27,584 nt of DNA from the NCBI GenBank assembly GCA_964451125.1, contig CAYVGM010000006.1, positions 1 to 27,584 on the forward strand, given 5' to 3'. The stretch comes from an uncultured Chitinophagales bacterium. Lineage in GTDB: Bacteria > Bacteroidota > Bacteroidia > Chitinophagales > JADIYW01. Both the position numbers and the translations under genes were made by a program. The notes under the pieces were generated by a model, which was not told the origin of the DNA, ran no database searches, and saw nothing but the letters and a program-made list of their open reading frames with translations. Shown piece after piece: positions 1,930-27,218 of the stretch (positions are counted from its first letter, which is position 1; each line of letters opens with the position of its first letter).

Positions 1930-3684
1930 TCAATATTTTTCACAAACCACTTTTGCATATCTGAAATTACCCTGATATTCAAAGTTAAGTTGAAAGTTAT
2001 TACCTGCCGGATGACCTGCTGGAATGGTATATTCCATCTTATCCATAAAAAGATAGTCCTCATTGGCTTGAAGATTTGGTAGAGTATTTACATTCTCTCT
2101 TATAAATCCGTAGCCGTTTGTATATAATTTATAAGCATGACCAAAGCCACTATTTTGTTTCCATGCATTATCTACCCAGATAAACACGGTAATTACAATT
2201 TTTTGACCCGGATACACAGCGGTAAGATTGCCTGATCTAAGACTTGGTCCATAAGAACCTATCCAAGTGCTTGTATTATTTGTTTCATTATATCCGTCAT
2301 AAAATACGATTTCTTCGACATCCGGCACCCCCTGGCATTTCCATCTCCATCCGTCATAAACTTCTATACATTTTTTAGTAGAGTTGTAGCGTATTGAACC
2401 TTCTACATTTGCCCCTCCACTAGTACCCAATTTTACATAGCCGTTAACATCTAATGTGTTGGTAGGGTCGGCAATATTAATACCCACATTACCTCCGGCT
2501 TCCAATACCAGCCTATTATCGGCTATAGTACTTTCCGTGAATCCCAAGTCATTGTTACCGGATCCTTGCGTGCGTAAATGCCATTGATTGGTACCGGCAT
2601 TATCCTTAAACTGGATTAGGTCTGCATTACCTGCAAGAGGCTGTATGGTTAGCTTCATATTGGGTGTAGTGGTACCGATGCCCACATTGCCGGTTTCATC
2701 AATTCTCATTCTTTCTACTTGAGAATTTCCGCCACCTGTGGTGAAAAACAATCTGCCTGCCCCCGAACTTGCTATATTTATGCCTATTCTTCCTCTGTCA
2801 TTTCCGTCTTGAGTAGTAGATGTAGTAGATGACGCACCGTGTACAAAACCCATCCACCATGTGTCATTTGCATTGCCGGATGTAGTTCCTAATTTGAATA
2901 CGCCATTATTTGGAGCATTGTCTGCTACAGCTAACCTTGCGCCTGGTGAGATAGTCCCGATACCCACGTTGCCATTTTGCAGCAAGCGCATTACATCTGT
3001 ATAAGTTTGACCTCCATAAGTGCCTGATGCGCTATTTCCAACTTGAAAAGCCAATCCATTTTCAGCACCTCCGGCTTTCAAATACGCCACTGAGCCGTCG
3101 TGGGTTAAATACATGTGATCCCACTGGGCAGAGGATACGCCACCTTTTAAACCAATACTACCACTAACAACGTCTAACTTTATATCGGGAGTAGCAGAAG
3201 CACCCGAAAAATCACCGAGACCTACATTACCCGTTACATACTGCGCATCTGATTTAGTGGCAGGTGTAGAGGCTGTAGTTGCTTTGGTCCAGTCGTTTCC
3301 AGCAGCCTAATTTATGGTTCTCCATCCTGCATTTACATACTGAAATATACCTACTCCAGTGGTAGGTGCAATTGATGTGCTATTAAAAATGGCAACATTA
3401 TCATCTAAATTAATGATGGTCAATACCTGCCCTTCCACCGGAGAAGTTGCTGAAACAGCATTGGCTTGTACGCCTGCAACATTGGTAATGTATACCGTAG
3501 AAGTATTCGTTGGTACCGTTATGGTTGCTGCCGCTGCTAAGGAGGTAGGAATAACAGCCAAGCCTCCATTTACGGTTAGTTTGGCAGTAGGTGAGGTAGT
3601 GCCAATACCTACATTGCCGGTTTGAGCTACTACATTCCAGATTGTTAACTGGAAAACGCAGAAAAAAAGAGTAAAAATTTTCAT
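1930..3684 (-). pseudogene. Secreted NVGIGT-repeat fibre/adhesin-like protein, copy A, interrupted by one in-frame TAG (3307-3309)
   Basis: ORFs 3307..3684 and 1930..3114 are in the same frame. The 64 codons between them are open (AAGNDWTKATTASTPATKSDAQYVTGNVGLGDFSGAS...) and match copy B. The TAG aligns with TCG (Ser) in copy B. Signal peptide ends in A-Q. Confidence 0.85.
3312..3624 (-). repeat. 313-bp perfect inverted repeat, arm 1 (partner 22500-22812)
   Basis: Base-by-base comparison: the reverse complement of 3312-3624 equals 22500-22812. After 2 mismatches in 4 bp, a further 30 bp are identical (3278-3307 vs 22817-22846). Confidence 0.95.
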
Positions 3685-3839
3685 AATAAAGTATAATTTA
3701 AAACTTCAACAAGATTAAAAATTTACTTGCAGATACTATCAACAAAAAGCGAATAAAAAATAACATTTCATGCATACTTTAATAAAATACATTACAATAC
3801 CTTTAAAACTTGTATTTTTAATGATAGTTCTAAAACGCA

Positions 3840-4413
3840 TCATATTATGAATCGGATTCTAACAATTACTACATTCCTTTTGATGTTAATAGGTAGTAAT
3901 ATACAAGCGCACACAGGAAGTTTTTTAGAATCTGCATAATAAATACCGGTATGTTTGCCATATCTGCAACAATTTAAATACAAGTATAACAAACTGAAAT
4001 AACGAGATTGAAGGCTAACGAAACGCTCGTAACTGACCGCTTTGGGGAAATAATCTTTAAGATGAATCAAGATGATTTGCCTCTAATAATATTCAAAACA
4101 TTTAAATCCGGACAAGTGATAGAAGATACAAATTGTCTTTATCTCGCTGGCAGCCATTTGCGGAATGTGTGTAGGTATTGAATTTGATTTATGGGGTAAC
4201 TTATGGGGTGCTTGCAACTGTTCAAAAGCATTCATAAAATCATCACAAGAACAAAATATTTCTATTAACTTTGATACGTGTACGATATAATTCATGGTGG
4301 TAAATGGTTTGATTCACCACAAAATTTATCTTCTTTTACAGTTTTATATCGTACACTTATAATATCCTGTTGATAATCTTTATCTTACATGGTTTCTAAT
4401 CCATAATTCACGT
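3840..4413 (-). mobile_element. IS982-family insertion sequence remnant (5' part; transposase with in-frame TAG and truncated)
   Basis: Motifs LIEIFCSCDDF, SEIKTICIFYHLSGFKCF, LKDYFPKAVSYERFV and TGIYYADSKKLPVC resemble IS982 transposase N-halves. In-frame TAG at 4083-4085; resemblance stops near 3909. The left end at 4413 (acgtgaatt on -) is tentative. Confidence 0.8.
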
Positions 4414-4586
4414 TAATTTACCTATGGGATTAATTTGAAGACTTTTTTAACGTCATTTGTTACGACAATATCTAATTTTCTGGTATATATTATACAAACA
4501 CCAAAACCAACCTACGAGGTCAATTTATATTTAGAATTTCAAAAGGTGTTGATTATCAATGTGTTTGATTTTTAACCTACGAGGTG

Positions 4587-7448
4587 TTACATGCCCGGAG
4601 GATGAGGAGGTGGCATAAACTCTTTTGGTTTATCGTCTGTTTGTTTTGCGCTTCCTTTTGTTTTTCGCAAAGTATAAGTGATAGTGCCCATAAAATAGCG
4701 TTGCAATGCCGTACTTTGTACATCTTCAGTATAATTTTCGGTTACATTGCGGCTGATGCTCTTATTTTGATTCAGGATATCATTGGCACTGAATTTAAGT
4801 TCGAGACTTTCGTCTTTTAAAAATTTGTAAGCCAAACTTGCATTTAACAGCCAATAACTCACATCGTAGCTCGAGCTTCCTCCTGCATTTAGCTGATTGC
4901 TTACTACCGTGTTCAATACAAAACCTTTCCAAAACTGATAGTTGATTTTTGCCGATGCTGTATGCGAATAATAATTGGAATTATTTTGCTGTTGCAGTGT
5001 GTTGCGTACAATATTATAAGAACCTGCATACATCAAGGTAAAATCTATCTTTTTGCTGATATTGCTGCTCACTACAAAACCTCCGTTTACAGCATAAGTG
5101 TTTGCATTATTCTGCAACAGATTGATAAGCGTAGGTGTACGGGTATATGCAAAACCGGTGTTGAAATTCATATTACATTTTATTTTTGAAACAGGAAAAC
5201 CATAAGTAATAAATGTTCTTGTCGCCAGATAGCCGTGCATGTTTACCGGATAGCTTAATTGTGTACCATTATTGACAAGCATTTGCTGAATGAGTGTATC
5301 ATTTATTATAGTTTGTGTGGCTATAGAAATATAATTTCTGGTGTTGTTGAACATGGCGAAAATGAACATGTTTGTTGCTTTATCTGTATTCGACCTGCCG
5401 TATCTTAAGCTGATTTGCTGGGCGAAAGCTTGTTTCAGCTCGGGGTTGCCTGTACTTAACAGCAAAGTATTGCTGTTGTCAATTACGTTTTGCAATTGTG
5501 AAATACTTGGAGGATTGGTTGAAGTCCTATAATTGATTCGAAGATTATCTGTCTTGGAAAATTTATAGGTAAATTCAGCATTGGGCAAGGCGGTAATAAA
5601 GTGCTTCTTTATTTTGAAATCGTAGGGAAATTGCTGTACACTGCTCAGAAGTGCACTTTGCCCATTGACACCGACCGCCCAGCTTATTTTATTTTTGTTG
5701 TAACGATAAGCAATTCCTAAGGTACTGGTGATGTATTTATTCAAGAATTGATTGCTTAAAGTTGAGTCTAACTCCGTATAGGAATCAGATAGTGCATTGA
5801 AATTATACGTGTTTTTGTCGGATGCTGAACGTGTATAAGAAGGGTTGTAAGACAATGAGATTTGTCCGGTTTTTTTAATTGGTTCAGTATATACAATTGA
5901 TCCGCCTAGTGTGTAGTTAAGTGTTTTTAAGGATGATTGCTGATCCAGGCTATCTGTTACCTCTAAACTATCTTGCTGGTAATTATTCAAACTCCACAAT
6001 GAGCCGTCATTCGTCTTGGTATTCACATTGGTTTGTAAGCTTGCAGAAATTGTTCTGCCTTTTTTATGCAATTTATGCTGATACAGTATTTCATTATTGA
6101 GTGTGTAGCCTTGTTGCTTTGCCTGTTGATCGTTTTGCAATGTACTGAGTATGCCTTCAGCATTGTTGGTATTCGCCTGCAAGGCAGAACGGTTGTTGTA
6201 ATATTGTGTGGTAAATGAAGGTGTGAAAATCAGTGTATTATTACTGTCTAAGGTATATTCGATTCTGAAATTAAGACGATTGTTGAAATTTTTTGAAACT
6301 GCTTCTTTATTTTCAAGATATACCAGATTGCTGTCATTTGAACTTAAATAATGTCTGTTGGTGTAGCTGTTATTTGTGTTTTTTGAAGCATTAAAAAAAT
6401 AAGAACCCGAGAAATTGACTTTTTTCTTTTTACCCCATTTATCCGCATAATTTACCCCTAATGCAGTAGTAGTAGAGATACCGCTTTGCGGAAAGACCAT
6501 TAAATTGTTCAGTGGGCTGTTTCTGCCCATTCCACTTGGCCCGCCTCTGCCTCCGCCTCTTCCGCCACCACCGGATGAACTTCCCATTGCACCAACCAAA
6601 TCTTGCACGCTGAAATTTTGTATATTGATATTATTGCTCATGGCAAGAATGGAAAATCTGCGGTCGTTTTTGAAATCATTATAGTTGGCACCCACAGTAT
6701 AGCGGTTGCCCGGTCCGCCATATCCCGCATAAAATCTGCCTAATTTCGAGTTGCCTAAAACATTTTTAGTTATAATGTTTAATGTCTTTTGTGCATTGCC
6801 ATCGTCAAATCCGGTAAATGCAGCCTGATCACTCATTTTATCAAAAACCTGAATTTTATCAATTACTTCAGCCGGTAGGTTTTGCAATGCAGTGCGTGTA
6901 TCATCGCCAAAATAGGCTTTTCCGTCCACCAGTACCTTTTTAACTTCTTCACCATTTACTTTTACAGTTCCGTTCTCCGAGGACACACCAGGCATTTTCA
7001 TTAAAAGGTCTTCAGTAGTTGCATCTTTATTAGTTTTAAATGCCTCGGCATTGTATTGTGCTGTATCTCCTTTTTGCAGCACACGAATTTGTTTACCTTC
7101 AATATTGACTTCATTCAGCATTTTTGAATCTTCTTCGAGCTGTATTGGCTCAAGTTGAATATTGTCTTTTACAAAAATTTTCTTCGTAAAAGTTTTATAG
7201 CTGATATAAGAAAACTCAAGCAAATAAGCACCTTGCGGTACATTATCAAGTTCAAAGTGCCCATTCATATCAGATACTGTGCCCAGTTTATAAGTGGTAT
7301 CCCGAATACCGTTAAGCAGAATATTTGCGCCAATAATTTCTGAACTGTCTTTGCTATCTGTAATTCTTCCTGAAATTTTATAGGACTGCCCATTAGAGGG
7401 TAAAACAAATAAAATAAGTAATAGTGAGGCAAATAAAAGTTTAAACAT
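4587..7448 (-). CDS. Outer-membrane beta-barrel protein with N-terminal carboxypeptidase-regulatory-like domain (TonB-receptor-like, OMP_b-brl_3 type)
   Basis: Signal peptide; ISGRITD...IIGANILL N-domain; plug-like TEDLLMKMPGV, VLVDGKAYFGDD and IDKIQVFD; barrel end QRYFMGTITYTL. Probable start is ATG at 7448 (ORF track starts at TTG 7457). Confidence 0.85.
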   Translation of the reverse strand: MFKLLFASLLLILFVLPSNGQSYKISGRITDSKDSSEIIGANILLNGIRDTTYKLGTVSDMNGHFELDNVPQGAYLLEFSYISYKTFTKKIFVKDNIQLEPIQLEEDSKMLNEVNIEGKQIRVLQKGDTAQYNAEAFKTNKDATTEDLLMKMPGVSSENGTVKVNGEEVKKVLVDGKAYFGDDTRTALQNLPAEVIDKIQVFDKMSDQAAFTGFDDGNAQKTLNIITKNVLGNSKLGRFYAGYGGPGNRYTVGANYNDFKNDRRFSILAMSNNINIQNFSVQDLVGAMGSSSGGGGRGGGRGGPSGMGRNSPLNNLMVFPQSGISTTTALGVNYADKWGKKKKVNFSGSYFFNASKNTNNSYTNRHYLSSNDSNLVYLENKEAVSKNFNNRLNFRIEYTLDSNNTLIFTPSFTTQYYNNRSALQANTNNAEGILSTLQNDQQAKQQGYTLNNEILYQHKLHKKGRTISASLQTNVNTKTNDGSLWSLNNYQQDSLEVTDSLDQQSSLKTLNYTLGGSIVYTEPIKKTGQISLSYNPSYTRSASDKNTYNFNALSDSYTELDSTLSNQFLNKYITSTLGIAYRYNKNKISWAVGVNGQSALLSSVQQFPYDFKIKKHFITALPNAEFTYKFSKTDNLRINYRTSTNPPSISQLQNVIDNSNTLLLSTGNPELKQAFAQQISLRYGRSNTDKATNMFIFAMFNNTRNYISIATQTIINDTLIQQMLVNNGTQLSYPVNMHGYLATRTFITYGFPVSKIKCNMNFNTGFAYTRTPTLINLLQNNANTYAVNGGFVVSSNISKKIDFTLMYAGSYNIVRNTLQQQNNSNYYSHTASAKINYQFWKGFVLNTVVSNQLNAGGSSSYDVSYWLLNASLAYKFLKDESLELKFSANDILNQNKSISRNVTENYTEDVQSTALQRYFMGTITYTLRKTKGSAKQTDDKPKEFMPPPHPPGM

Positions 7449-7573
7449 AAATGACAAGAGTAGATATTAGACTGTAAATATCGGGTAAAGTTTAATATGA
7501 AGTTGCAATTTCAGATTTGTTTAATCTTTATTAAGCATTCAATTTTCAGCTAATAGATTTTATTTGCTGGAAG

Positions 7574-8101
7574 CTATTCTTTTTGATTGATTTCAATTTT
7601 ATAAACTGCCCAGTCGAAAAGATTCAAAGTTTCAAATTTTTTGATAAATGCTTTTTTGTCTAACAGCGTTTTTGCAGGTATTTCAGCAATGCCCAGCATA
7701 TCATCATCATCAATAAATTCGTAATATCCTTTTTTGTTTTTTAATAATTCTTTGAAATAAACCCTACAGATGGCATCAAAGGCTTTCAGTTGTTTGCGTG
7801 TGTCTTGTTCTATCAAAACCAGACGCAGGGTATCTGTACTTAAAAGGGAGTCTGTTTTAAAGCTATATATTTTTGTTTTGTGCGATGAATCAGCCACAAA
7901 ATACTCGCGTACCAATGGAAGTGGATTTTCAATGTTAACTGATTTCTTATACAACAATAAAACCAGCTCATCATTGAAAGTAGCTCCTGGTGCAAGGTCT
8001 TCGCTCAAATCTATCGTTTTTATCTTTATGCTGTAAGTCAGCGAATCTGCATGAGCAGTAATCATATACATGCAACAGGCTAAAAAAAGTAGTTTCTTCA
8101 T
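7574..8101 (-). CDS. Hypothetical exported protein (~175 aa)
   Basis: MKKLLFLACCMYMITAHA signal peptide from ATG 8101 (ORF track starts at 8131); no family recognised. Confidence 0.65.
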   Translation of the reverse strand: MKKLLFLACCMYMITAHADSLTYSIKIKTIDLSEDLAPGATFNDELVLLLYKKSVNIENPLPLVREYFVADSSHKTKIYSFKTDSLLSTDTLRLVLIEQDTRKQLKAFDAICRVYFKELLKNKKGYYEFIDDDDMLGIAEIPAKTLLDKKAFIKKFETLNLFDWAVYKIEINQKE

Positions 8102-8189
8102 AGTTGAATTTTTATGTATTAACAATTTCACCGGAACGTTAGTTTATTTTAGCTTTTAAAATAGCACATTTTAACTAATTTCATACATT

Positions 8190-8837
8190 ATGCTGAACAC
8201 TACATTTATTTCAGTCCAAAAAACGGCAAGAATTTTTACGTATGGCAACCTTACCGCTAAGACCAAGCTGATATGGATGGTAGCACATGGGTACGGACAA
8301 TTAGCCGCTTATACAATTAAAAAGTTTGAAGTACTGCATCCTGAAGAGCATTTTGTTATTGTACCCGAGGCACTCAATCGATTTTATCTGGATGGATTAT
8401 CAGGTAGGGTAGGTGCAAGTTGGATGACAACAGAAGATCGGGAGCATGAGATTGCCGACCATATTTTATACTTAGAAAAAGTTTATGAAACATTAATTTT
8501 ACATTCAGGTGCAAAAGTGGTGGCTTTTGGCTTCTCGCAAGGGGCAAGTACGATATGCAGATGGGCTTTGCAAACACAGAAACCGTTGAATAACATCGTT
8601 TTATGGGGAGGTAGCATTCCGAATGAATGTCTGGAACAGGTGGATCGACTTAACAAATTAACTCCTTATTTATTGGTAGGCGATACAGATATCTACATCA
8701 GTGAGGAAAGAAAAGAAGAGGTTATGAAAAATTTACGTAATATTGGCTTAACATTTTCACATATTTTTTACAAAGGCGGTCATTCTATCGTAACTGAACC
8801 TTTAATCGAACTCTCTGCCCGCTTAACACAAACCTAA
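8190..8837 (+). CDS. Alpha/beta-hydrolase (phospholipase/carboxylesterase-like esterase)
   Basis: HGYGQ oxyanion motif, GFSQG nucleophile elbow, GDTD and GGH acid/His motifs. Confidence 0.85.
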   Translation: MLNTTFISVQKTARIFTYGNLTAKTKLIWMVAHGYGQLAAYTIKKFEVLHPEEHFVIVPEALNRFYLDGLSGRVGASWMTTEDREHEIADHILYLEKVYETLILHSGAKVVAFGFSQGASTICRWALQTQKPLNNIVLWGGSIPNECLEQVDRLNKLTPYLLVGDTDIYISEERKEEVMKNLRNIGLTFSHIFYKGGHSIVTEPLIELSARLTQT

Positions 8838-8848
8838 CCTTGCCGCCC

Positions 8849-8856
8849 TATTTTTG
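8849..8856 (+). promoter_or_regulatory. Candidate Bacteroidetes -7 box (TATTTTTG) for rlpA
   Basis: Matches TAnnTTTG 30 bp upstream of the start codon. Confidence 0.45.
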
Positions 8857-8885
8857 CATCAGCTTTTTGAACGAAACGAAATGCT

Positions 8886-9755
8886 ATGAAAAAAATTGCC
8901 ACCATATTTATATTAAACCTGATGTGTGTATTACTCGCATCAGCTCAGGTAGAGTACGGCGTTGCATCGTATTATGGTATTGAGTTTGAAGGAAGACCCA
9001 CTGCGTCAGGTGAAATTTATTATCAGAATAAACTGACTGCGGCACATAAAACCATGAAACTCGGCACAGTAGTGAAAGTAACTAACACTAAAAACCATAA
9101 ATCCGTTTATGTAAAAGTAAATGACAGAGGACCATATATTAAAGGAAGAGTCCTAGATTTATCTACCAAAGCTGCTCAAATACTAGGGTACAGAAATGCA
9201 GGTACATGCACCGTAAAAATTGAGACGGTACATCCTAATGAAGTCCCTAAAGATTTAATGGCTGCTACTGTCAAATTAAATAAAAAGCCTGATTTAGAAA
9301 AAACTCCTGTAAACGATAGTGCGGAAAGCAGAGATGCAACATGGGAAAATATTCCGACCATAGATACCGATATTTTTAACCCTTATGCTCCCACCACTAA
9401 TCAATCGTCTCCTTCCTCAAATTCCAATGCACCTGCCAACGAATGGAAATTAAAAGGAACTGAAGCCATAGGCAACCGCAAACCTTATTACGTTATTACT
9501 AAACATAATAAAGAAAATGACGGATTCTTTGGCATCCAGTTAGGAGTGTTTTCTGACCCATCTATTATTTTTGAAATAGCAGACAGCATTTGCAATGATT
9601 ATGACCACGAAGTAATAATTGAACAATCTACATTGAATGATAAGCCTGTGTACAAATTATACATTGGTAAATTTCAAAATAAAACCTATGCTGATGCGCT
9701 CAAATTAAGCATGACAGATAGATTTAAAGACGCATTTGTTGTACGCTACGAATAA
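8886..9755 (+). CDS. rlpA: Septal ring lytic transglycosylase RlpA-family protein with C-terminal SPOR-like domain
   Basis: GVASYYG...TASGE...LTAAHKT...VKVNDRGPY...LDLS DPBB motif; low-complexity linker; FGIQLGVF...YKLYIGKF...AFVV SPOR-like end. Confidence 0.9.
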   Translation: MKKIATIFILNLMCVLLASAQVEYGVASYYGIEFEGRPTASGEIYYQNKLTAAHKTMKLGTVVKVTNTKNHKSVYVKVNDRGPYIKGRVLDLSTKAAQILGYRNAGTCTVKIETVHPNEVPKDLMAATVKLNKKPDLEKTPVNDSAESRDATWENIPTIDTDIFNPYAPTTNQSSPSSNSNAPANEWKLKGTEAIGNRKPYYVITKHNKENDGFFGIQLGVFSDPSIIFEIADSICNDYDHEVIIEQSTLNDKPVYKLYIGKFQNKTYADALKLSMTDRFKDAFVVRYE

Positions 9756-9897
9756 TATACCGTATTTGTTTTTAATAAAGTCCAAACTTCACTACATTCA
9801 ATTGTATATTTTTAAACTACAACGACATAAGTTTATTTTTCTGGTCTAAAGAACAGAATACATTTAGTATAAGAAAAAAAGTAACCACCAGCCAAAT

Positions 9898-9933
9898 AAA
9901 AAGCCGCTTCAAGAGGAGCGGCTTTAATTTTTT
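9898..9933. terminator. Probable bidirectional intrinsic terminator
   Basis: Stem aaagccgct / agcggcttt flanked by A and T runs, between convergent rlpA and DUF2795 genes. Confidence 0.75.
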
Positions 9934-9950
9934 AGAAAAAGACAATTGGT

Positions 9951-10172
9951 TTAATATTCATCCTCATTAAACAAGAAATCTTCTTTTGTCGGGTATTCCG
10001 GCCAGATGTCTTCTATGCTTTCATAAATTTCTTCATCATCTTCCATTTCCTGTAAGTTTTCAATCACTTCCAAAGGCGCACCTGTGCGGATGGCATAGTC
10101 AATAAGTTCATCTTTTGATGCAGGGAAAGGTGCTTCTTCCAAGTATGATGCTAATTCGAGTGTCCAGTACAT
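9951..10172 (-). CDS. DUF2795 family protein
   Basis: MYWTLELASYLEEAPFPASKDELIDYAIRTGAPLEVIENLQ is the conserved Bacteroidetes/Chlorobi DUF2795 pattern. Confidence 0.9.
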   Translation of the reverse strand: MYWTLELASYLEEAPFPASKDELIDYAIRTGAPLEVIENLQEMEDDEEIYESIEDIWPEYPTKEDFLFNEDEY

Positions 10173-10209
10173 AATTTTAAATTTTAGATTTACTATTTTT
10201 TCAGGGTTG

Positions 10210-10217
10210 CAAATATA
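10210..10217 (-). promoter_or_regulatory. Candidate -7 box (TATATTTG on -) for DUF2795
   Basis: Matches TAnnTTTG 38 bp upstream of the start codon. Confidence 0.45.
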
Positions 10218-10270
10218 TACGCTTTTTCAAAAAAACAAAATATTTTTTTTAACGATTTTAATATTGATTA

Positions 10271-10816: not shown

Positions 10817-10866
10817 AATTATCTGTTAATAGATGAATAAATGAGGTTTAGGTTGCAAAAAATATG

Positions 10867-14202: not shown

Positions 14203-14223
14203 TTGCACTACAAAAAAATATGT

Positions 14224-14231: not shown

Positions 14232-14251
14232 TTCCTTAAAATATCAGCTTT

Positions 14252-14821: not shown

Positions 14822-15169
14822 TACCAGCCAATCTCTCTTAGTGTAAAGTATTTTAACATTTTGTGTGTTTTGTTTTAGAATTTTTACCACATAGAGGTAT
14901 AGATTTTTTTAGGATTAACAATGTTTTCCTTACAAAATTAAGTAAGAATAGGAAAATATAAGAATCGTCAAAGGCGATATTAGGTTTTTGCTTGTAATCT
15001 ATATTGGTTTGTAGCAAGTAACTATTTATGATTAGAAATACTATAATTCTATTTGGTTTAAATCACACAATGGGTTATATTATTATTTTTTACTGATAAA
15101 CTTTCATCAGTAATCCATCCACTTATTTGTACAATCTTACAATCACTAACTTCTTACCGCTTTTTACCT

Positions 15170-15177
15170 TAAATTTG
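15170..15177 (+). promoter_or_regulatory. Candidate -7 box (TAAATTTG) for tnaA
   Basis: Matches TAnnTTTG 17 bp upstream of the start codon. Confidence 0.45.
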
Positions 15178-15193
15178 TTGTCTAAATTTTTGC

Positions 15194-16576
15194 ATGAAAA
15201 GACCTCGGACCTTGGCAGAACCGTTTAAAATTAAGATGGTTGAACCATTGAAAATTACTACAGAAGCTTATCGCAAAACTCAATTAGAGAAAGCATTTAA
15301 CAATCCTTTTTTACTTAAAAGCGAAGATGTCTTTGTCGATTTGCTGACAGACAGCGGAACAGGAGCGATGAGCGAACAACAATGGTCTGCCATGATGTTG
15401 GGCGATGAGAGTTATGCCGGAGCAAGCAGTTGGGAAAAGTTAGAAACAGAAGTTAAAGATTTAACGCAAATGCCTTTTGTTATTCCCACCCATCAAGGCA
15501 GAGCAGCAGAAAGAATTTTGTATGGTATACTTGGAGGAAAAGATAAAGTATTTATCAGCAACACGCATTTTGATACGACACGTGCCAATATAGAATTTAC
15601 GGGTGCGCAAGCTTTTGATGTCATTTATGAGGAGGCTAAAGATCCGCAAAAAGAACTGCCTTTTAAAGGCGATTTGAATGTAGAAGAAGCAGATGCTATT
15701 ATACAAAAATTTGGTGCTGACCGAATAGGTGCTATCGTGTTAACAATTACTAATAACTCCGCAGGCGGTCAGCCTGTAAGTTATAAAAACGCACTTGCTG
15801 TTCGTGCATTGTGCGATAAATATGGCATTTTGCTTGTGCTGGATGCTTGCAGAATTGCCGAAAACAGCTACTTCGTTAAACACCGTGAGGCTGGTTTTGA
15901 AAATCAAACGTATCGCGAAATTGGTACGGCATTTCTGAGTTTGGGCGACGCATTTATTATGAGTGCTAAAAAAGACGGCTTAGTGAATATGGGTGGTCTG
16001 CTTACGCTGAAAGATAAAAAGCTGGCTGAGCAATGTATGAATTTACTGATTATTTCAGAAGGATTTGTTACTTATGGCGGCTTAAGTGGCAGAGACATGG
16101 AAGCCTTGGCTGTCGGATTGCAAGAAGTGTTTGATGATGATTATTTACACTATCGCATAAAAAGTACGGAATATCTAGGCAGGCATTTGAATGAAATGGG
16201 AATTCCAACGGTAAAACCTTATGGCGGACATGCCATCTATGTAGATGCCAAAGCCTTTTATAATCATATTCCCCCGCACGAATATCCGGGGCAAGCCCTC
16301 GTCTGTGATTTATATGTAAAAGGCGGTATTCGTTGTTGCGAAATTGGCTCGGTGATGTTTGGTAAAACGGATGCTCATGGTAATTTTATACCCGCACAAT
16401 TTGAGTTGGTTCGTTTAGCTATTCCTCGGAGAGTTTACACACAAAGCCATATCGACTATGTGATAGATATTTTTGCTGAGTTGAGTGAAGAAAAACAAGC
16501 TTCGAAAGGGATGAAAATTACATACGAGCCTCCATTTTTGCGCCACTTTACTGCACATTTCGAAAGAGTCGTTTAG
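15194..16576 (+). CDS. tnaA: Tryptophanase (beta-eliminating lyase family)
   Basis: EPFKIKMVE, DLLTDSGT, MSAKKD (PLP Lys) and LAIPRRVYT motifs. SAKKD and C-terminal LRHFT favour tryptophanase over tyrosine phenol-lyase (SGKKD, LRFFT). Confidence 0.85.
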   Translation: MKRPRTLAEPFKIKMVEPLKITTEAYRKTQLEKAFNNPFLLKSEDVFVDLLTDSGTGAMSEQQWSAMMLGDESYAGASSWEKLETEVKDLTQMPFVIPTHQGRAAERILYGILGGKDKVFISNTHFDTTRANIEFTGAQAFDVIYEEAKDPQKELPFKGDLNVEEADAIIQKFGADRIGAIVLTITNNSAGGQPVSYKNALAVRALCDKYGILLVLDACRIAENSYFVKHREAGFENQTYREIGTAFLSLGDAFIMSAKKDGLVNMGGLLTLKDKKLAEQCMNLLIISEGFVTYGGLSGRDMEALAVGLQEVFDDDYLHYRIKSTEYLGRHLNEMGIPTVKPYGGHAIYVDAKAFYNHIPPHEYPGQALVCDLYVKGGIRCCEIGSVMFGKTDAHGNFIPAQFELVRLAIPRRVYTQSHIDYVIDIFAELSEEKQASKGMKITYEPPFLRHFTAHFERVV

Positions 16577-16669
16577 TTGATATGCTTTAGTCTGCAAGCC
16601 ATTGATTGCGATATGCAACTACACTATTCTTAAACTTCCCGAAACAACAATTTTCCTATTTTTGCGCCC

Positions 16670-18577
16670 ATGTTGCAAGCTACAAATCTTTCTATCATAT
16701 TTGGCAGTCGTATCTTATTCGACAATGTTACTTTTACCATACAACCGAAAGACCGTATCGGTTTAGTGGGCAGAAACGGTGCGGGAAAATCTACTTTGCT
16801 GAAAACCCTGAATGGCGAAATCACTCCTCAAGAAGGAAGTATCGCCAAACCGAGTTCTTATTCTATCGGTTTCTTGAAACAAGAAATCAGAGCGCAAAAT
16901 GAACCTACCGTATGGCTGGAAGCACAAACTGCATTTCGCGAAATCAATATTTTGCAAGCTAAATTAGATGATATACAGCATCAGCTGGAAACCAGAACGG
17001 ATTATGATACGGATGATTATCTGAATTTATCTCAAGAGTTTTGTGATATCAATGACCGTTTGGTGCATTTGGATATAGACGATAAAGACAAAAACACCGA
17101 ACTGGTGTTAAAAGGTTTGGGCTATCAGCGCGAAGATTTTGATAAAGCGCCATCTACTTTCTCAGGTGGCTGGGCGATGCGCTTAGAGCTTGCCAAATTA
17201 TTGTTGCAATATCCCGATTTATTGTTATTAGATGAGCCGACCAATCACTTGGACATTGAGTCTATTATTTGGTTAGAAAGTTTTTTTAAAACGTATGACG
17301 GTGCGATAGTACTGGTTTCGCACGACAAGAAATTTTTGGATAATGTATGCAATAAGACTGTTGAGTTGGAATTGGGTAAAATGTATGAATACAAAGCCAA
17401 TTATTCCAAATACTTGATATTAAAAGAAGAGCGACGAGAAAAGCAATTACAAACGTATAAGAATCAGCAAGATCAAATCAAACAAATTGAACGCAATATC
17501 GAACGATTTAAAGCCAAAGCCAGCAAGGCTTCTTTTGCACAAAGTTTGGTGAAAAAATTAGATAAAATGGATGTGGTCGAAGTGGAGCAAGATGATGTGC
17601 GTGCCATGCGTTTCCAGTTTCCGATGGGACAACAAAGCGGAAAAGTAGTTGTAAAATCTACGAATCTGGCGAAAAGTTATGGCGAAAAAGAGGTCTTCCA
17701 TGATGTCAACCTTGAAATAGAACGTGGCGATAAAGTAGCTTTTATCGGTAAGAACGGAATGGGCAAAACCACGATGGCAAAAATCATTGCCAAAGAAATC
17801 AATGCCGACTCAGGCAATTTAGATTTAGGACATAATGTGAGCCGAGCTTTCTTCGCGCAGCATCATGCGGAGCATCTTCCCAAAAACCTCACTATTTTGC
17901 AATACATGGAAGATACAGCGCCGCCGGAAACCAGAGCTCAGGTGCGCAATATTTTAGGTGCGTTTATGTTCAGCGGTGAGGATGCCACCAAAAAGATAAG
18001 CGTACTGAGTGGAGGTGAAAGAGCGCGTGTATGCCTTGCACATTTATTGCTCCATACAAGTAATGTGTTGATTTTGGATGAGCCGACCAATCACCTTGAT
18101 ATCAAAGCTAAGGAAGTGCTGAAAGAGGCCATTTCCAAATATCCCGGAACGATCATCGTCGTTTCGCACGACAGGGATTTTTTAGCCGGTATGACCAATA
18201 AAGTGTATGAATTTAAAGATGGTGTAGTTAAAGAATTTGTCGGAGATATCGAAGCCTTTTTTGAAGAACGTCGTTTGCAGGATTTCAGAGAAGTGGAATT
18301 GAGTCAACAGCAAATAGCAGAAAGTACACCCAAAAACACGGTGAACACGGAACAGAAAACGACCAACACTATTGATAAAAAAATCAAAAATCAAATCAGC
18401 AAAATTGAAGCTGAAATTACAGCTAAGGAAACTCAAATCAATACTTTAGAAAAACAAATAACACAATTTTCGGAAGATGGTAAATATGATGAAAAAATTG
18501 CGCAAGATTTGGGCAATGCCAAAGAGCAATTAAACAGCCTGATGGAAGAATGGGAGAAACTAAGCATCGGGATTTAA
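16670..18577 (+). CDS. ABC-F family ATP-binding protein
   Basis: Two ABC domains (GRNGAGKST / GKNGMGKTT, FSGGW / LSGGE, LLLDEPTNHLD twice), linker, no TM segments, C-terminal coiled coil. Confidence 0.92.
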   Translation: MLQATNLSIIFGSRILFDNVTFTIQPKDRIGLVGRNGAGKSTLLKTLNGEITPQEGSIAKPSSYSIGFLKQEIRAQNEPTVWLEAQTAFREINILQAKLDDIQHQLETRTDYDTDDYLNLSQEFCDINDRLVHLDIDDKDKNTELVLKGLGYQREDFDKAPSTFSGGWAMRLELAKLLLQYPDLLLLDEPTNHLDIESIIWLESFFKTYDGAIVLVSHDKKFLDNVCNKTVELELGKMYEYKANYSKYLILKEERREKQLQTYKNQQDQIKQIERNIERFKAKASKASFAQSLVKKLDKMDVVEVEQDDVRAMRFQFPMGQQSGKVVVKSTNLAKSYGEKEVFHDVNLEIERGDKVAFIGKNGMGKTTMAKIIAKEINADSGNLDLGHNVSRAFFAQHHAEHLPKNLTILQYMEDTAPPETRAQVRNILGAFMFSGEDATKKISVLSGGERARVCLAHLLLHTSNVLILDEPTNHLDIKAKEVLKEAISKYPGTIIVVSHDRDFLAGMTNKVYEFKDGVVKEFVGDIEAFFEERRLQDFREVELSQQQIAESTPKNTVNTEQKTTNTIDKKIKNQISKIEAEITAKETQINTLEKQITQFSEDGKYDEKIAQDLGNAKEQLNSLMEEWEKLSIGI

Positions 18578-19293
18578 GTTGACGCAACTTCTTCTTGTTG
18601 TGTTTGTACAATTTCGACTTGCATCACTTCAATAGGCGGAACCCAAGCCGCATGTATTTTTTCATTGATATACGAAATAGATTTTACAGCAAGTAAAGAG
18701 AAAAATGGTGCTGCCAATACATCGATAGTATAATGTACTTTCTGCCACAAAATCATCACTGCAACAGCTATCGTAATGAATATCAACATTCGCTTTAAAT
18801 ATTTTCCTTTAGATACGATGAAAAATAAGAAGCTCGATGAAACATGTCCTGAAAAGAATAAATCATTGACTACCCTGTTTCCATTGTGATGCATATAGAT
18901 TTCTGCGAACGGGTCGCGCAGGAATATCATATCTTCCGGCGCTTGCAGTGGCCATAAATAGATGGTACATGTTCTGAATATCATTAAAAGTGCATAAGCC
19001 TGAAATGCAACAGATAATTCTCTTGGGTTATTGTAAAAAGAGGCGAAGCACAACACTATACCCAGATGAAATAAAACAAAAATGATGGTAGAAAAATCCT
19101 GTGCCTTGAATTGTGACAAAAGTGGATCGTTCAAAATTATGCCCGGTCGGGTTGTAAACTCTGCAATATAGGCTTTACAGTATTTGGCAGAAAACAACAA
19201 GATAGAAAGAGATATCAAAAAGTAGATAATGTGTACCGGAGAGGATAAATACATCTTCCAGTTCAAAAGTCCGTTTTTGATTTTTTGTGTCAT
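18574..19293 (-). CDS. PAP2-superfamily membrane protein, sphingomyelin-synthase-like (PAP2_C)
   Basis: Multiple TM helices; DLFFSGH and HYTIDV catalytic motifs. Stop codon overlaps the ABC-F stop by 4 nt (ttaa). Confidence 0.8.
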   Translation of the reverse strand: MTQKIKNGLLNWKMYLSSPVHIIYFLISLSILLFSAKYCKAYIAEFTTRPGIILNDPLLSQFKAQDFSTIIFVLFHLGIVLCFASFYNNPRELSVAFQAYALLMIFRTCTIYLWPLQAPEDMIFLRDPFAEIYMHHNGNRVVNDLFFSGHVSSSFLFFIVSKGKYLKRMLIFITIAVAVMILWQKVHYTIDVLAAPFFSLLAVKSISYINEKIHAAWVPPIEVMQVEIVQTQQEEVAST

Positions 19294-19437
19294 TATACTT
19301 TAAAAACACAAAAATATAGTATTTTTTTCTTACGAAATACACATTGGTTACAAAAAAATCATTTTAACCAATTATTAAGTAAAACTTCCGTTAAGCTATT
19401 GCTTTGTATGTAAACAAATTCACTGCAATAATTTCGA

Positions 19438-20487
19438 TTATTTTAGGTTTGCCTCAGACAATACACGTAGTCTTTGTTCGTAATCCATTTGCCGGTATTC
19501 ATTCGGAGCTATTTTAAATACAGATTTAAAATAACGCGAAAAAGAAGAAATATCATGGTAGCCAGTATTCTGTGCAATTTCCTTAATTTCTTTCATCCTG
19601 TTCATATTTTCCATAATAATTAAAATTCGCATTTCATTTATTATGTTCTTATATGTATTTTTTTTATTTTTAAGAATTTCCTGCAATTTTCTTGGAGACA
19701 TAAACAATCTTTTGGCTGTATTTTCAAGCGATAAAGGAAAGTTGTCCATGTTGTTGAGTAGGATGGATTTTATAGCATTCTCATATTCTGAATTTTCATA
19801 CATCTCAGGTATTTTCTTAAGCAACATCTCATCCATACTTTTGTATAACTCATAATTTTTATAAGGTATATCTTTGTTTATTACTGATTCGTTATAAATT
19901 ATATTATTGTACAGCCGGTTGGATGCCACCTCACAATTAAATTTTTTTGAGAAAAAAAAGATGCGTTCATTGCTTTTGTTTCCTGCGACATGAAATAACT
20001 CTATTTTTTTGGGTTGAGTGCTTTTGTTAGATAAGGTTTCTTCTATTCTTAAACGCAGAATCAACTCAAAATCTGCCAATGCTTCCATGTCATAATTTTC
20101 TTTATAAAACTGATATGGCATTTGTAATATCCAATGCACTTCATTATGTACCTTATTATATCTTATATTAATAAAATTGCTTATTAGTAATTGGTATTTT
20201 ATCATGCGGTCATGGGCGATATAAATACTTTTACAAGTCAGTAAAAAATGACCGATTAATCCGATATCCAATACACTCAACGGCTTAAATAATTCGTAAA
20301 ATAAATCGATACGGTTTACTTTTTGCCTTACTCGGGTGATTAGGTTAAAAAATATCTCTGCATCTGCCATTTCCAACGAATAGACAGAGGCAATAATTTG
20401 CTCATCACTTTCAAAATCACGCAAAACATAACCCGCATTTTCTAATGCAAAATAGATGCTTCTTAGTATTGACGTATTAATGACCAC
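19438..20487 (-). CDS. AraC-family transcriptional regulator
   Basis: C-terminal double HTH (SLENTAKRLFMSPRKLQEIL; IAQNTGYHDISSFSRYFK) with a long N-terminal ligand-binding-type domain. GTG start. Confidence 0.88.
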   Translation of the reverse strand: MVINTSILRSIYFALENAGYVLRDFESDEQIIASVYSLEMADAEIFFNLITRVRQKVNRIDLFYELFKPLSVLDIGLIGHFLLTCKSIYIAHDRMIKYQLLISNFINIRYNKVHNEVHWILQMPYQFYKENYDMEALADFELILRLRIEETLSNKSTQPKKIELFHVAGNKSNERIFFFSKKFNCEVASNRLYNNIIYNESVINKDIPYKNYELYKSMDEMLLKKIPEMYENSEYENAIKSILLNNMDNFPLSLENTAKRLFMSPRKLQEILKNKKNTYKNIINEMRILIIMENMNRMKEIKEIAQNTGYHDISSFSRYFKSVFKIAPNEYRQMDYEQRLRVLSEANLK

Positions 20488-20600
20488 TGTTTAAAAATAA
20501 TAAAAATACTTGCCCTAGTATACTTTTGCATGTGCTAACCTGTTATTTTGCGTTAAATGTAAATTATTAAGCGTATTATGCTAAGCAGAAGTGAATGAAA

Positions 20601-20614
20601 ATAATTAAATTTGT
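20601..20614 (+). promoter_or_regulatory. Candidate promoter core ATAATTAAATTTGT (contains -7 box), identical to 26746-26759
   Basis: TAAATTTG at 20606-20613; the same 14-mer occurs upstream of fibre copy C. Confidence 0.5.
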
Positions 20615-20634
20615 TTAGCTAATTATATATTATC

Positions 20635-22419
20635 ATGAATAAATTTTACACCGCTTTAGTATTTCTTATCATTTCCCATCAAATCTTTGCCCAACTTTTC
20701 ATTGACAACGGCACTAATGGCACCTTATCCATTAGAAATGCTTCTTCAGGTACTTTAGCTTCTTACGATAATACGAACTCAACAGTAGCCCTGTTTGTAG
20801 ATGGAGATATTACCGTGAAGGGTACGTATGACAATCAAGCTACTGAAACACAACTTACCGGCAATATCAGTAATTCAGGAACATTTACAACTACGGGTGA
20901 TGAAGTATTTGTTTCTGCCCCAAATGCAACCATCACTACAAGCATCAATCAACGTATAACCGGTTCATTTACTTCAACCAACGATTTTTACAATCTGATT
21001 ACACATAAAGCAGCTACTCAAATCGTCGATTTAGCCAATAATGTAGAAGTAGAAAATACCATAAAATTTAATAACTCAGGAAGAATTAGAACAGATGTTG
21101 CCGGACATACAAATGATGGTAGTGCCTATCCTTACGAGATCTATCTGAAAAATGGCGCAACAAGTTCATTAGTGGGTAACAGCACCGGCAATGGTGCTAC
21201 CGAAAAATATTTCGAAGGAAAACTAAGAAGAAAGGTTACATCTACGGGTACCTATTATTACCCGATTGGCGTTGCACCTGCTTCATTAGACGGTATGGAA
21301 GCCTTTGAACTTAATTTTACTTCAAATCCTAATATGGATTTTCTGGGATATATTAAACCTGCTGCAGTTGCACCTATTACAAGAAATGTGCTTTGTGATG
21401 TGGGCAAAGATCCCGGACCCGGTATGCAAACCCATAATGGCTGTGTAGGCTCTCCAGATGGCATTTATGATTGGTATTATTTAGAAACATCTATGGATTT
21501 ATCGCACGAGTGGGTGGCCACTCCAAGTGGCGGTACCAGCGGTTATGCTTACGGTATAACGCTACATCCGGGTAGTGTTTTAGACCCAAATAATGCATCA
21601 AGCTACTATACAATACCTACTGCTTGTGGAAGTCCATACCAAAATCAACGACTGAGAATAGTTGTCAAGGATGGCGTAGTAGGCGGTAATGCACAATTTT
21701 TTCCTACAATAGGTGGCTATATGGCTCCTTGGAATCATTTGGGACCTGTGTATTTGTGGTGCTCTTTTGACAATACCGATTTAGACATCACGTTAAATAA
21801 TCAGACTTCTTTCTCAACTTACCGTATCCACGGCACCAGTCTTTCTTCCAACACGGCTTTGCCGGTAGAGCTTGTATATTTAAAAGCAGAGCCTATAAAC
21901 AACTCCTATATTAAAGTTTCCTGGCAAACAGCCTCTGAAATAAATAATAAAGGATTTGAAGTGATACGCAGTACAGACGGTACTAACTTTACTTCAATTG
22001 GTTTCGTAAATGGTAACGGCACTTCAAGTTTACCGCATGATTATTCTTTTAATGATTACAACGTACAACCCGATATGCTGTATTATTATAAACTAAAACA
22101 ACTCGATTTTGACGGATCTTCTTCATTAACCTATACGGTAAGTGCTAAATTAACCGGAACAGATGTATTTTCCGTTTCAGATGTGTATCCAAATCCTGCC
22201 GATGGGGATGCCTTTGTCAATATTGTTGCTCCAGATTCCGGTGAATTACTGTTTAGTTTATACAATGTAATTGGTCAACAAGAAAATGCAGTAAAAATAA
22301 ATTTAGAAAAAGGACTCAATAAAGTTCGAATTACGGATATTAGCTTAGCAAAAGGAACGTATATTGCCCGTTTTGAATTTAATAACACTACAACCAGTAA
22401 AAAAATAATTAAAAAATAG
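20635..22419 (+). CDS. T9SS type-A sorting domain-containing secreted protein
   Basis: Signal peptide ending A-Q; LPVELVYLKA...WQTASEINNKGFEVIRS Ig-like module; CTD VYPNP...YNVIGQ...LAKGTYI...KKIIKK. N-terminal passenger not recognised. Confidence 0.88.
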   Translation: MNKFYTALVFLIISHQIFAQLFIDNGTNGTLSIRNASSGTLASYDNTNSTVALFVDGDITVKGTYDNQATETQLTGNISNSGTFTTTGDEVFVSAPNATITTSINQRITGSFTSTNDFYNLITHKAATQIVDLANNVEVENTIKFNNSGRIRTDVAGHTNDGSAYPYEIYLKNGATSSLVGNSTGNGATEKYFEGKLRRKVTSTGTYYYPIGVAPASLDGMEAFELNFTSNPNMDFLGYIKPAAVAPITRNVLCDVGKDPGPGMQTHNGCVGSPDGIYDWYYLETSMDLSHEWVATPSGGTSGYAYGITLHPGSVLDPNNASSYYTIPTACGSPYQNQRLRIVVKDGVVGGNAQFFPTIGGYMAPWNHLGPVYLWCSFDNTDLDITLNNQTSFSTYRIHGTSLSSNTALPVELVYLKAEPINNSYIKVSWQTASEINNKGFEVIRSTDGTNFTSIGFVNGNGTSSLPHDYSFNDYNVQPDMLYYYKLKQLDFDGSSSLTYTVSAKLTGTDVFSVSDVYPNPADGDAFVNIVAPDSGELLFSLYNVIGQQENAVKINLEKGLNKVRITDISLAKGTYIARFEFNNTTTSKKIIKK

Positions 22420-22442
22420 TTTAACTCATAAAAGTTGTCATC

Positions 22443-24218
22443 ATGAAAAATTCTTTACTTTTTATTTTATCTGTGATACTGACTGTAAACAGTTATGCCC
22501 AAACCGGCAATGTAGGTATTGGCACTACCTCACCTACTGCCAAACTAACCGTAAATGGAGGCTTGGCTGTTATTCCTACCTCCTTAGCAGCGGCAGCAAC
22601 CATAACGGTACCAACGAATACTTCTACGGTATACATTACCAATGTTGCAGGCGTACAAGCCAATGCTGTTTCAGCAACTTCTCCGGTGGAAGGGCAGGTA
22701 TTGACCATCATTAATTTAGATGATAATGTTGCCATTTTTAATAGCACATCAATTGCACCTACCACTGGAGTAGGTATATTTCAGTATGTAAATGCAGGAT
22801 GGAGAACCATAAGTTCGGCTGCTGGAAACGACTGGACCAAAGCAACGACAGCATCTACACCTGCTGTTAAATCGGATGCACAGTATGTAACCGGTAACAT
22901 AGGTATTGGTGATTTTTCTGGAGCTTCTTCAACTCCGGCTCAAGAATTGACAATTGGTACATCTACTTCCAATTCTGATCAGCGCATCTTGATTGATGCT
23001 GCTGCAAATGTTCAGTCAGGAATCGGTTTGAATAGTGCTGGTGTAGAAAAGTGGGTGATATATCGTCCGAGTTCATCAAATGACTTACGTTTTTACAATT
23101 CTACAACTACAGCCACTGATAAAATTACCTTTCAGGACGGAACAGGTAATGTCGGTATTGGTCTTACATCTCCATCCACTAGATTGCATGTGCAAACCGG
23201 AGCTAACTCTACTGCGGCAACGTTCGATGGCTCCAATTCGGCAGACAATACGGCAGTAGTAAGTATCAGAAGACAGGATATACCTGCAAGAAAAATAGAC
23301 TTTATTCCATCAGCTTATGATGGCTCTGCCAATACATGGCAGGAGATACAATTTAGCAGTTCAAGTATTGCAGGAACACATACTACACGCTTTACCAACG
23401 GCTTAAAATATACATTTGATAATATTGTGGGTATAGGAACGAATACGCCTAATTTCCGCCTTACTATTCAACCAGCTGCCGGTAATTCAGATCTTATCCA
23501 ATTTAGAAATAATGCGGGTGTAAATAAATGGCATATGCGTACGCAAGGTACATCAGATGGAGATTTGGGCTTTACTGAATCTGGAATAGCAGATAATAGA
23601 TTGGTATTAGAACAAGGTGGCAACATCGGTATTGGCACATCTAACCCGGAAGTAAAATTGCAGGTAGAAGGATCTACCAAAGTAACAGAGACTTCATTTA
23701 CTAGAGCATTGGTAGTAACAGATTATTCACAACTTTCCGGTAATAATGGTAATAGTAGTTGGACAGATGTTAATTGCAATGATGGTTGGGCAGTTACAGC
23801 ACTACAAGTATATGTTGGTGGATATCTGCAAGGTCCAATCCAAACTATTTGTGCTAATTTAACAGGTGTAATAAGTGGTGGTACATATAGATCAGGAAAC
23901 TCAACTAATGGATATGACAATGCTGACCATATATTTGATTGCAACTCAAATGAAATTGCCCGTGGTTTTGGATTATATAAAAGCAGTACCGGAGAATTTG
24001 ATAATGGTAATGTGTTTTGTAGTACTGTTTCATCAGGCTATACTAGAGGAACAGCATTTCAGGCATTGGGTAACAGTGGTAATGGCACCGGCCCTGATAA
24101 TATGAACCATGCTACCTCTTGTCCTCCCGGGTCATATTTAGTAGGCTCCACTATTTACGCTACTGGCAGACTAGATGGGAATTTACGCATCCGTTGTGCT
24201 ACTATCACTAAAAATTAG
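22443..24218 (+). CDS. Secreted NVGIGT-repeat fibre/adhesin-like protein, copy B (intact, 591 aa), with Cys-rich C-terminal tip
   Basis: Signal peptide (SYA-Q), repeated GN(V/I)GIG junctions, three C...C repeats at the C-terminus. Starts 23 bp after the T9SS gene. Confidence 0.85.
   Translation: MKNSLLFILSVILTVNSYAQTGNVGIGTTSPTAKLTVNGGLAVIPTSLAAAATITVPTNTSTVYITNVAGVQANAVSATSPVEGQVLTIINLDDNVAIFNSTSIAPTTGVGIFQYVNAGWRTISSAAGNDWTKATTASTPAVKSDAQYVTGNIGIGDFSGASSTPAQELTIGTSTSNSDQRILIDAAANVQSGIGLNSAGVEKWVIYRPSSSNDLRFYNSTTTATDKITFQDGTGNVGIGLTSPSTRLHVQTGANSTAATFDGSNSADNTAVVSIRRQDIPARKIDFIPSAYDGSANTWQEIQFSSSSIAGTHTTRFTNGLKYTFDNIVGIGTNTPNFRLTIQPAAGNSDLIQFRNNAGVNKWHMRTQGTSDGDLGFTESGIADNRLVLEQGGNIGIGTSNPEVKLQVEGSTKVTETSFTRALVVTDYSQLSGNNGNSSWTDVNCNDGWAVTALQVYVGGYLQGPIQTICANLTGVISGGTYRSGNSTNGYDNADHIFDCNSNEIARGFGLYKSSTGEFDNGNVFCSTVSSGYTRGTAFQALGNSGNGTGPDNMNHATSCPPGSYLVGSTIYATGRLDGNLRIRCATITKN
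22500..22812 (+). repeat. 313-bp perfect inverted repeat, arm 2 (partner 3312-3624)
   Basis: Identical to the reverse complement of 3312-3624. Its first 74 bp are also identical to 26848-26921. Confidence 0.95.
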
Positions 24219-27210: not shown

Positions 27211-27218
27211 GTAAGAGA

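Follow-up and report, generated by a model that had tools for sequence, protein, structure and literature searches.

The 27,584-nt stretch of DNA analysed here (the window) is the entire contig C6 of a metagenome-assembled genome (MAG) of an uncultured Chitinophagales bacterium (424 contigs, 80.9% completeness, 4.2% contamination). It carries two fibre genes in inverted orientation, A on the minus strand (1930-3684) and B on the plus strand (22443-24218), with a core block of housekeeping genes between them and a truncated third copy, C (26788-26973, plus strand), beyond B. With moderate confidence, we read the three as recombination-prone paralogs with a homogenised start, between which the core block has probably been flipped in the past and of which A is decaying, with no regulated switch involved. 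This reading sets out from an inverted repeat with a mosaic identity profile, the family assignment of the fibre genes, the flipped synteny of the core block and several other broken genes in the surrounding island. An earlier note on the same DNA had proposed that inversion switches between two fibre tips, with an amber stop placed so as to silence the partner not joined to the operon. The present analysis does not support a programmed binary tip switch in which the amber codon has been placed on purpose, and we consider such a switch improbable.

Repeat finding recovered the inverted copies that the earlier note had described, as a pair of 440-nt arms with 96% complementarity, arm A (3188-3627, minus strand) and arm B (22497-22936, plus strand). 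A base-by-base comparison reproduced the course of the identity as the note had given it. Within the first 350 arm positions the two arms differ only at positions 2, 316 and 319, the last two corresponding to window 22813 and 22816, and the next difference falls at position 350. A first identical tract of 313 nt (3312-3624 / 22500-22812) is followed by a second one of 30 nt (3278-3307 / 22817-22846), and between them AAT TAG in A faces AGT TCG in B. The TAG is codon 126 of A (3307-3309, minus strand), B having TCG at the equivalent place. Translation agreed with the note that this is the sole in-frame stop in A, which is otherwise open across 584 codons, the 458 codons after the TAG being fully open. 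A encodes its own signal peptide, the shared N-terminal module, an NVGIG-repeat stalk and tip A, and B is intact, with 591 aa and tip B. Copy C has its own signal peptide and 41 residues of the shared module before a TAA, which makes it a 61-codon stump; its arm (arm C, 26843-26971, 129 nt) is 90% identical to A.

Along the alignment of A and B, nucleotide identity starts at ~50% in the upstream region and the signal peptide, rises to 100% over nt 58-370 and then falls to 93%, 82% and ~50%, with an island of 67% at nt 1010-1186. The homogenised tract of ~440 nt has a sharp 5' edge at the signal-peptide cleavage site and a graded 3' edge, and overall the two proteins are 59% identical in amino acid sequence over 410 residues. 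Divergence is zero, silent sites included, inside paralogs that are otherwise saturated, which is the pattern expected of gene conversion. Because the identical synonymous sites lie inside old paralogs, they point to conversion and not to selection alone. The perfect 313-nt inverted repeat is beyond a chance origin, and the mosaic profile is, as far as sequence can tell, the signature of a recent recombination or conversion tract within old paralogs.

In the reading that we favour, A, B and the stump C would be paralogous genes for secreted fibre adhesins resembling the mosaic adhesive trimer (MAT), with a common N-terminal module and exchangeable tips. The first ~440 nt after the signal peptide would have become near-identical through recent homologous recombination of the RecA type, as gene conversion accompanied or not by crossover, and the inverted placement of A and B, and of A and C, would allow the same recombination to flip the intervening 19-23 kb. 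Such a flip would probably have happened at least once, leaving the core block, hereafter K, reversed relative to the rRNA operon. B would be the working gene within a conserved module made up of an AraC-type regulator, a protein with a type IX secretion system (T9SS) tail and a fibre. A would be a silent spare in early decay, interrupted by the amber codon, preceded by the IS982 remnant and lacking a recognisable -7 box, and C would be a truncation scar.

The assignment of A and B to the MAT-like fibres comes from the stalk and from distant homologues. Neither protein matched Pfam or NCBIfam. Residues 167-307 of the A stalk (counted after the TAG) match 8OND (Bd2133) with an E value of 4.7e-10 and 8OML with an E value of 1.9e-4, and the match to Bd2133 runs through a repeated ERMRID..GNVGIGT..P..L unit. 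B itself has no match in the PDB at E<=1; it shares the 8OND-matching module of A, which coincides with the island of ~67% nucleotide identity and in which the motif is aligned. More distant homologues of A and B carry Peptidase_S74 (the endosialidase chaperone domain) or DUF5907. On the strength of the Bd2133 stalk match and these homologues, A and B are predicted to be MAT-like trimeric fibre adhesins. The AlphaFold2 monomer model of B, built on a 35-sequence alignment, gave a mean pLDDT of 46.5 and a pTM of 0.25, too low for a fold comparison.

The C-terminal tips of A and B are unrelated, as the earlier note had stated: in BLASTP the last ~170 residues of the two proteins are similar only in the final NVGIG motif. 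Intact homologues of tip A occur in G046 and G009, at 41-45% identity, and homologues of tip B at ~30% in G019, G016, G014 and G008, so that shared N-terminal and stalk parts are combined with unrelated tips whose homologues are found in different genus members. Paralogs with 75% identical N-termini and exchanged tips have already been described for MAT proteins (PMC10769870). The likeness to the Bdellovibrio bacteriovorus MAT (PMC10769870, 8OND, 8OML) extends to the signal peptide, the beta-helix stalk with its ERMRID..GNVGIGT..P..L unit and the occurrence of paralogs with near-identical N-terminal parts and unrelated tips. In contrast to the Bdellovibrio proteins, the fibres of the window belong to a Bacteroidota-type sludge host, are much shorter (~590 aa), have T9SS-tail and AraC partners, and lack an S74 chaperone domain.

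Block K (4415-19285), outlined with Pfam and BLASTN, consists of housekeeping genes and is syntenic with contigs of two close relatives, G022, which is the nearest one, and G048. Its genes encode a TonB-type outer membrane protein (OMP), an esterase, an RlpA-like protein, a cobalamin adenosyltransferase, an aminotransferase, a beta-eliminating lyase, an ABC-F protein and a PAP2-like protein. BLASTN identities of K to the contigs of these relatives span 72-96% overall; the two share K at 93-96% (G022) and 85-91% (G048) nucleotide identity. One contig of G022 follows the window from 11510 to 4415 and then, ~30 nt on, from 26977 to 27536, in the 5S/23S flank. The rRNA operon of G022 therefore lies directly at the OMP end of K, whereas in the window it is the opposite end of K that faces the rRNA operon, 7.7 kb away, and K is accordingly reversed relative to G022. 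This is the comparison of block orientation between related genomes that the earlier note had proposed.

Three breakpoints separate the two gene orders, at 4415 (the outer end of the IS982 remnant), at 19285 and at ~26975, the last only a few nucleotides from the end of arm C; the homology to G022 resumes no more than ~4 nt from the end of copy C. In both G022 and G048, the 19285 end of K adjoins a B12-radical-SAM gene, the orthologue of which starts contig C51 in the genome of the window. An inversion between A and B or between A and C restores the order of K and rRNA operon seen in G022, and two insertions together with one arm-to-arm inversion rebuild the window from the G022 order, covering all three breakpoints. 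Weak evidence in the same direction comes from GC skew, which on the plus strand is +0.048 in K and -0.05 to -0.06 in the adjoining accessory segments, the rRNA operon lying on the minus strand. A past arm-to-arm inversion, or else a choice made in assembly, is likely to be behind the flip of K as far as the sequence goes. If recombination between the arms caused it, the flip would be a rare and incidental event, not a regulated switch.

The flip of K could also have come from events unrelated to the arms, such as an IS982 rearrangement or insertion of the island, with A and B being static paralogs whose identity arose only by conversion or recent partial duplication. The breakpoint at 4415 does coincide exactly with the end of the IS982 remnant, the one at 19285 is outside the arms, and accessory DNA is present on both sides of K. 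We give this alternative little credence, for the third breakpoint is only a few nucleotides from the end of arm C and a single arm-to-arm inversion with two insertions explains all three breakpoints. A search of the other end of K (19286-19437) found no trace of an insertion sequence, and an inversion of K mediated by insertion sequences, with an IS982 end at 4415 and no counterpart there, was retained only as a minor rival.

Several points weigh against the reading of paralogous recombination, a past flip and decay. The direction of change rests on one relative, G022, and in more distant members of the genus the OMP gene and the rRNA operon are not neighbours, which leaves the polarity uncertain. 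Any model needs a further rearrangement at 19285. The segment with the AraC and T9SS genes lies inside the putative inversion, yet its skew has the same sign as that of the outer flanks. The way in which leaders and tips are joined is taken from one short-read MAG assembly, and the 458 open codons after the TAG would also fit a cassette kept for reuse.

The composition of the assembly bears directly on the orientation of K. Shared 55-mers were found at 88 pairs of contig ends and shared 77-mers at none, and the scaffolds contain 100-N gaps, which together point to a SPAdes-type assembly with a final k of 55. The 313-nt perfect repeat is ~6 times longer than this and collapses in such a graph, where the two possible pairings of leaders with tips are exactly the two inversion states. 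Since the repeat exceeds k, the orientation of the contig across it rests on read-pair support. The path through the repeat, or the TAG itself, could be an assembler's choice in a mixed-strain metagenome, the true genome having the other orientation or an intact A, and we regard this as rather unlikely, although somewhat less so than the other alternatives. Read pairs alone would have chosen between two equally valid paths, the other path agrees better with the orientation in G022 and with the GC skew, and no other assembly among those searched contains a full-length A, B or the 125-aa product that A would give up to its TAG. Against this, a single contig passes through both arms, which would normally happen only with consistent pair support, and the TAG is tied to tip A by a 30-nt tract that is shorter than k=55, so that this link is supported by k-mers. 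The TAG and the linkage of leader to tip are known from this one assembly.

Public sequence data corroborated the repeat itself. The organism is widespread in activated sludge, and ~30 sludge or wastewater runs carry the locus; these exist as k=31 Logan contigs, which break at the arms. The 30-nt tract is one base short for k=31, and the TAG cannot be linked to either tip in these data. In four runs from four studies, the contigs covering 3050-23049 show no strand-changing joint, all of them ending at the repeat, which they are unable to bridge. On the left side they end at 22526-22529 (at 22573 in one low-depth run), contigs with tip B begin at 22817, the contig with tip A begins at 3307, and contigs on the side of B stop at 26877, within arm C, exactly as the repeat predicts. 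These contig ends in several independent samples confirm the repeat structure; they do not confirm the linkage of leaders to tips. Tip B is present in many sludge runs, and an identical tip A was found on a Logan contig from another sample (L042). One contig (L054, from the low-depth run X1, window 19332-22573) does not stop at 22526-22529, where the contigs of four other samples break, but continues from leader B through 76 nt of the shared tract; this would mean either that its graph lacks the junction with leader A or that the strain is a different one.

Copies of the genes were sought more widely. A scan of JGI metagenomes with the shared N-terminus gave only distant relatives, at <=78% over short stretches, and in protein searches neither A nor B nor the 125-aa product turned up a second time. 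Exact look-ups gave no match for the leader A fragment (30 aa), the 125-aa product, the AraC protein, the product of 274-1221 or the T9SS protein, and among the genus members searched there was no close orthologue of A or B, the best identity being 38%.

The geometry of the switch that the earlier note had put forward is correct. If the crossover fell in the 30-nt tract, the T9SS gene, leader B, the shared tract and the TCG codon would be joined to tip A and the TAG would be carried onto tip B, whereas a crossover in the 313-nt tract would swap the leaders only and merely detach tip B from the operon. RecA recombination depends roughly linearly on the length of identity above a minimum of ~25 nt. 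With 30 nt set against 313 nt, the productive crossover would make up only a few percent of events compared with the longer tract. The proposal of the note stands in its geometry and has comparative support from the synteny, by which the block has probably flipped; a working switch is not supported, given the short productive tract, the lack of a linked recombinase and the lack of conservation.

A search for recombination genes was consistent with the note in that none is linked to the arms: the window contains no recombinase gene other than the IS982 transposase remnant. Seven tyrosine-recombinase hits and one weak resolvase fragment were found in the genome (81% complete), all on other contigs. 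A recA gene is present (C77:755-1543, E 5e-137). Apart from the coding arms, of 440 nt and 129 nt, no inverted repeats bound the segment. A site-specific inverton was rejected, there being neither short specific sites nor a linked recombinase.

It is tempting to compare the locus with the sap system of Campylobacter fetus, and a working RecA-dependent switch of this type would be one alternative to decay. The promoter of the T9SS operon, on the invertible segment, would serve the fibre tips in turn, and A would be a silent cassette that loses its amber codon when a crossover or a conversion tract ends in the 30-nt tract. The inverted paralogs do share a long 5' coding region, around a segment with the only good -7 box before the fibre operon (TAAATTTG, at 20606, 22 nt ahead of the ATG of the T9SS gene), and no such box was found upstream of A. 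The frame is open for 458 codons behind the TAG, the tip A family has intact members in relatives, K is flipped relative to G022, and recA is present. We nevertheless consider the switch unlikely. Productive crossovers would have 30 nt of identity against 313 nt for the commoner ones, which only detach tip B from the operon, no recombinase is linked, and the segment carries 15 kb of housekeeping genes. Neither the nearest relatives searched nor more distant contigs with the same AraC/T9SS/fibre module have the inverted fibre pair. Neighbouring genes are decaying too, and TAG is a normal stop in this genome. No orientation variants occur in the Logan contigs, which at k=31 end at the repeat and cannot show them.

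S-layer switching in C. fetus reportedly proceeds by inversion between conserved 5' regions of sapA homologues, and it uses general (RecA) recombination and not a site-specific invertase. Like the window, the sap locus has oppositely oriented surface-protein paralogs with a long conserved 5' coding region and divergent 3' parts, and its segment between the genes carries a promoter, to which a putative promoter ahead of the T9SS gene would correspond in the window. The sap system has complete cassettes and a dedicated invertible unit of ~6 kb, and both of its orientations have been demonstrated. The window differs in having one amber-stopped and one truncated cassette and a 19-kb housekeeping segment that carries both leaders; complete, expressible cassettes, as in sap, are not what we found, A being interrupted by the amber codon and C reduced to 61 codons. 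A MAT-like fibre varied, as the C. fetus S-layer is, by a RecA-driven 19-kb inversion that carries the promoter of the T9SS operon strikes us as more doubtful still than the general form of this alternative. In such a system, tip B would be silenced by crossovers in the 313-nt tract, and rarer crossovers or conversion tracts extending into the 30-nt tract would bring tip A into use and hand the amber codon over to the other gene.

A second comparison is offered by phtB/phtD of Streptococcus pneumoniae, where a 15-kb inversion has its breakpoints within two inverted paralogous surface-antigen genes (PMC6437910). That inversion exchanges gene halves, was found by genome comparison and recurs on four branches of the strain tree (PMC6437910). 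Unlike there, the present case consists of a single comparison with one relative that has no fibre genes at all. Bacteroides invertons and plasmid shufflons resemble the window in that DNA inversion alters which surface structure is made. Their inversion relies on specific sites that are short and on a dedicated recombinase of the tyrosine or serine type, which is usually linked, in contrast to the 440-nt coding repeats and the missing linked recombinase of the window.

The paralogous recombination that we favour goes together with decay of A, and it is here that the earlier note was not borne out: several other genes in the island are broken as well, so that the amber codon reads as decay, which fits better than a stop placed to silence the partner. 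Besides the amber codon, the lesions comprise the truncation of copy C, what is left of an IS982 element, and frameshifts in the PI-PLC gene and in one allele of the T9SS gene. The IS982 remnant (window 3700-4417) lies between the OMP gene and leader A, directly upstream of A, and contains a degenerate IS982-family transposase (3843-4313, minus strand; NF033520, E 1.3e-9, model positions 2-85 of 243). Its outer end, at ~4414-4417, coincides with the synteny breakpoint relative to G022, and a second partial copy with 86% identity is present elsewhere in the genome (C191:1342-1604). In the T9SS gene, a deletion of 10 nt at 21893-21902, with CCT microhomology at its edges, splits the product into 432 and 152 aa; this allele occurs in Logan contigs of six samples (L054-L059), and the MAG and run X2 carry the intact form. 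Reading the TAG of A as a sense codon was rejected, TAG being an ordinary stop that terminates 220 of the 1092 long open reading frames (ORFs) of the genome.

Taken as a whole, the locus is best understood as a multigene adhesin family undergoing ordinary concerted evolution and decay. Should the arms recombine measurably, the locus would be a rare case of surface-adhesin variation by general recombination in a non-pathogen, and the type of mechanism known from sap and phtB/phtD would extend to MAT-like fibres and T9SS-linked operons in wastewater Bacteroidota. The case also calls for caution with short-read MAGs, as a k=55 assembly may have given 19 kb of core genes an arbitrary orientation in the published sequence.

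The surroundings of B are those of a recurring module. As the earlier note had recognised, B stands behind a T9SS gene that adjoins an AraC gene: profile matches and gene positions identify an AraC-family regulator (19438-20487, minus strand), divergent from the gene for a T9SS type A C-terminal sorting domain protein (20635-22419, plus strand; PF18962 / TIGR04183), and B starts 23 nt past the stop of the latter. On two Chitinophagales MAG contigs (L050 and L053), the triad of AraC, T9SS-tail and fibre genes has a single fibre gene, with no partner in inverted orientation within 10 kb, and pairs of a T9SS and a fibre gene recur in G048. From these gene orders, the triad with a MAT-like fibre appears to be a recurring module in Chitinophagales-type genomes, sometimes with several per genome, which suggests that the T9SS-tail protein and the fibre work together. 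Given the single fibre gene of the triads elsewhere, B is the canonical gene, with A and C as extras. The triads were located at L050:7249-13601 and L053:8754-13900 and on contigs C275 and C333 of G048, with the genes 4-23 nt apart.

The -7-like box of the T9SS gene recurs 30 nt ahead of the ATG of copy C (26751). Upstream of A no -7 box of the TAnnTTTG type was found, and the window as a whole shows no enrichment of the motif, with 50 matches where 42 would be expected. A sigma-70-type promoter scan upstream of A gave fewer hits than shuffled sequences and was discarded, this being the wrong promoter type for the phylum.

Downstream of tip B lies a gene with a profile match to thioredoxin/TlpA-like proteins (24298-25683, plus strand), a 27% homologue of which follows a tip-B-like fibre gene on contig C7 of G019. 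In that genome, G019:C7:162992-184435 holds tandem fibre-like genes on the same strand, the last of them tip-B-like and followed by the thioredoxin/TlpA-like gene, an order that mirrors the one behind B. Next in the window comes a PI-PLC-X / Rv2075c-like gene (25730-26604, minus strand) in two overlapping ORFs in different frames. The split is also seen in Logan contigs, and since the orthologue in G048 (C151:4732-5541) is in one frame, the gene is, by this comparison, a frameshift pseudogene. The contig ends in 5S rRNA and the 3' end of 23S rRNA (27217-27584, minus strand; Rfam), and each of five genus genomes has a single 5S gene.

At the start of the contig (window 1-146), 46 nt are repeated exactly at a spacing of 100 nt in a hairpin-bearing repeat that resembles repetitive extragenic palindromic (REP) elements, and a 68-nt, likewise hairpin-bearing REP-like repeat occurs at 1502-1569 and 1830-1897, the two copies being 91% alike. 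Weaker copies of these repeats are found on other contigs and in G048, and they probably caused the break at the contig start. Within K, the intergenic stretch 14854-15090 is a dispersed repeat of ~230 nt resembling miniature inverted-repeat transposable elements, with 15 copies on 15 contigs of the genome (74-84% alike) and dozens of copies in G022 and G048.

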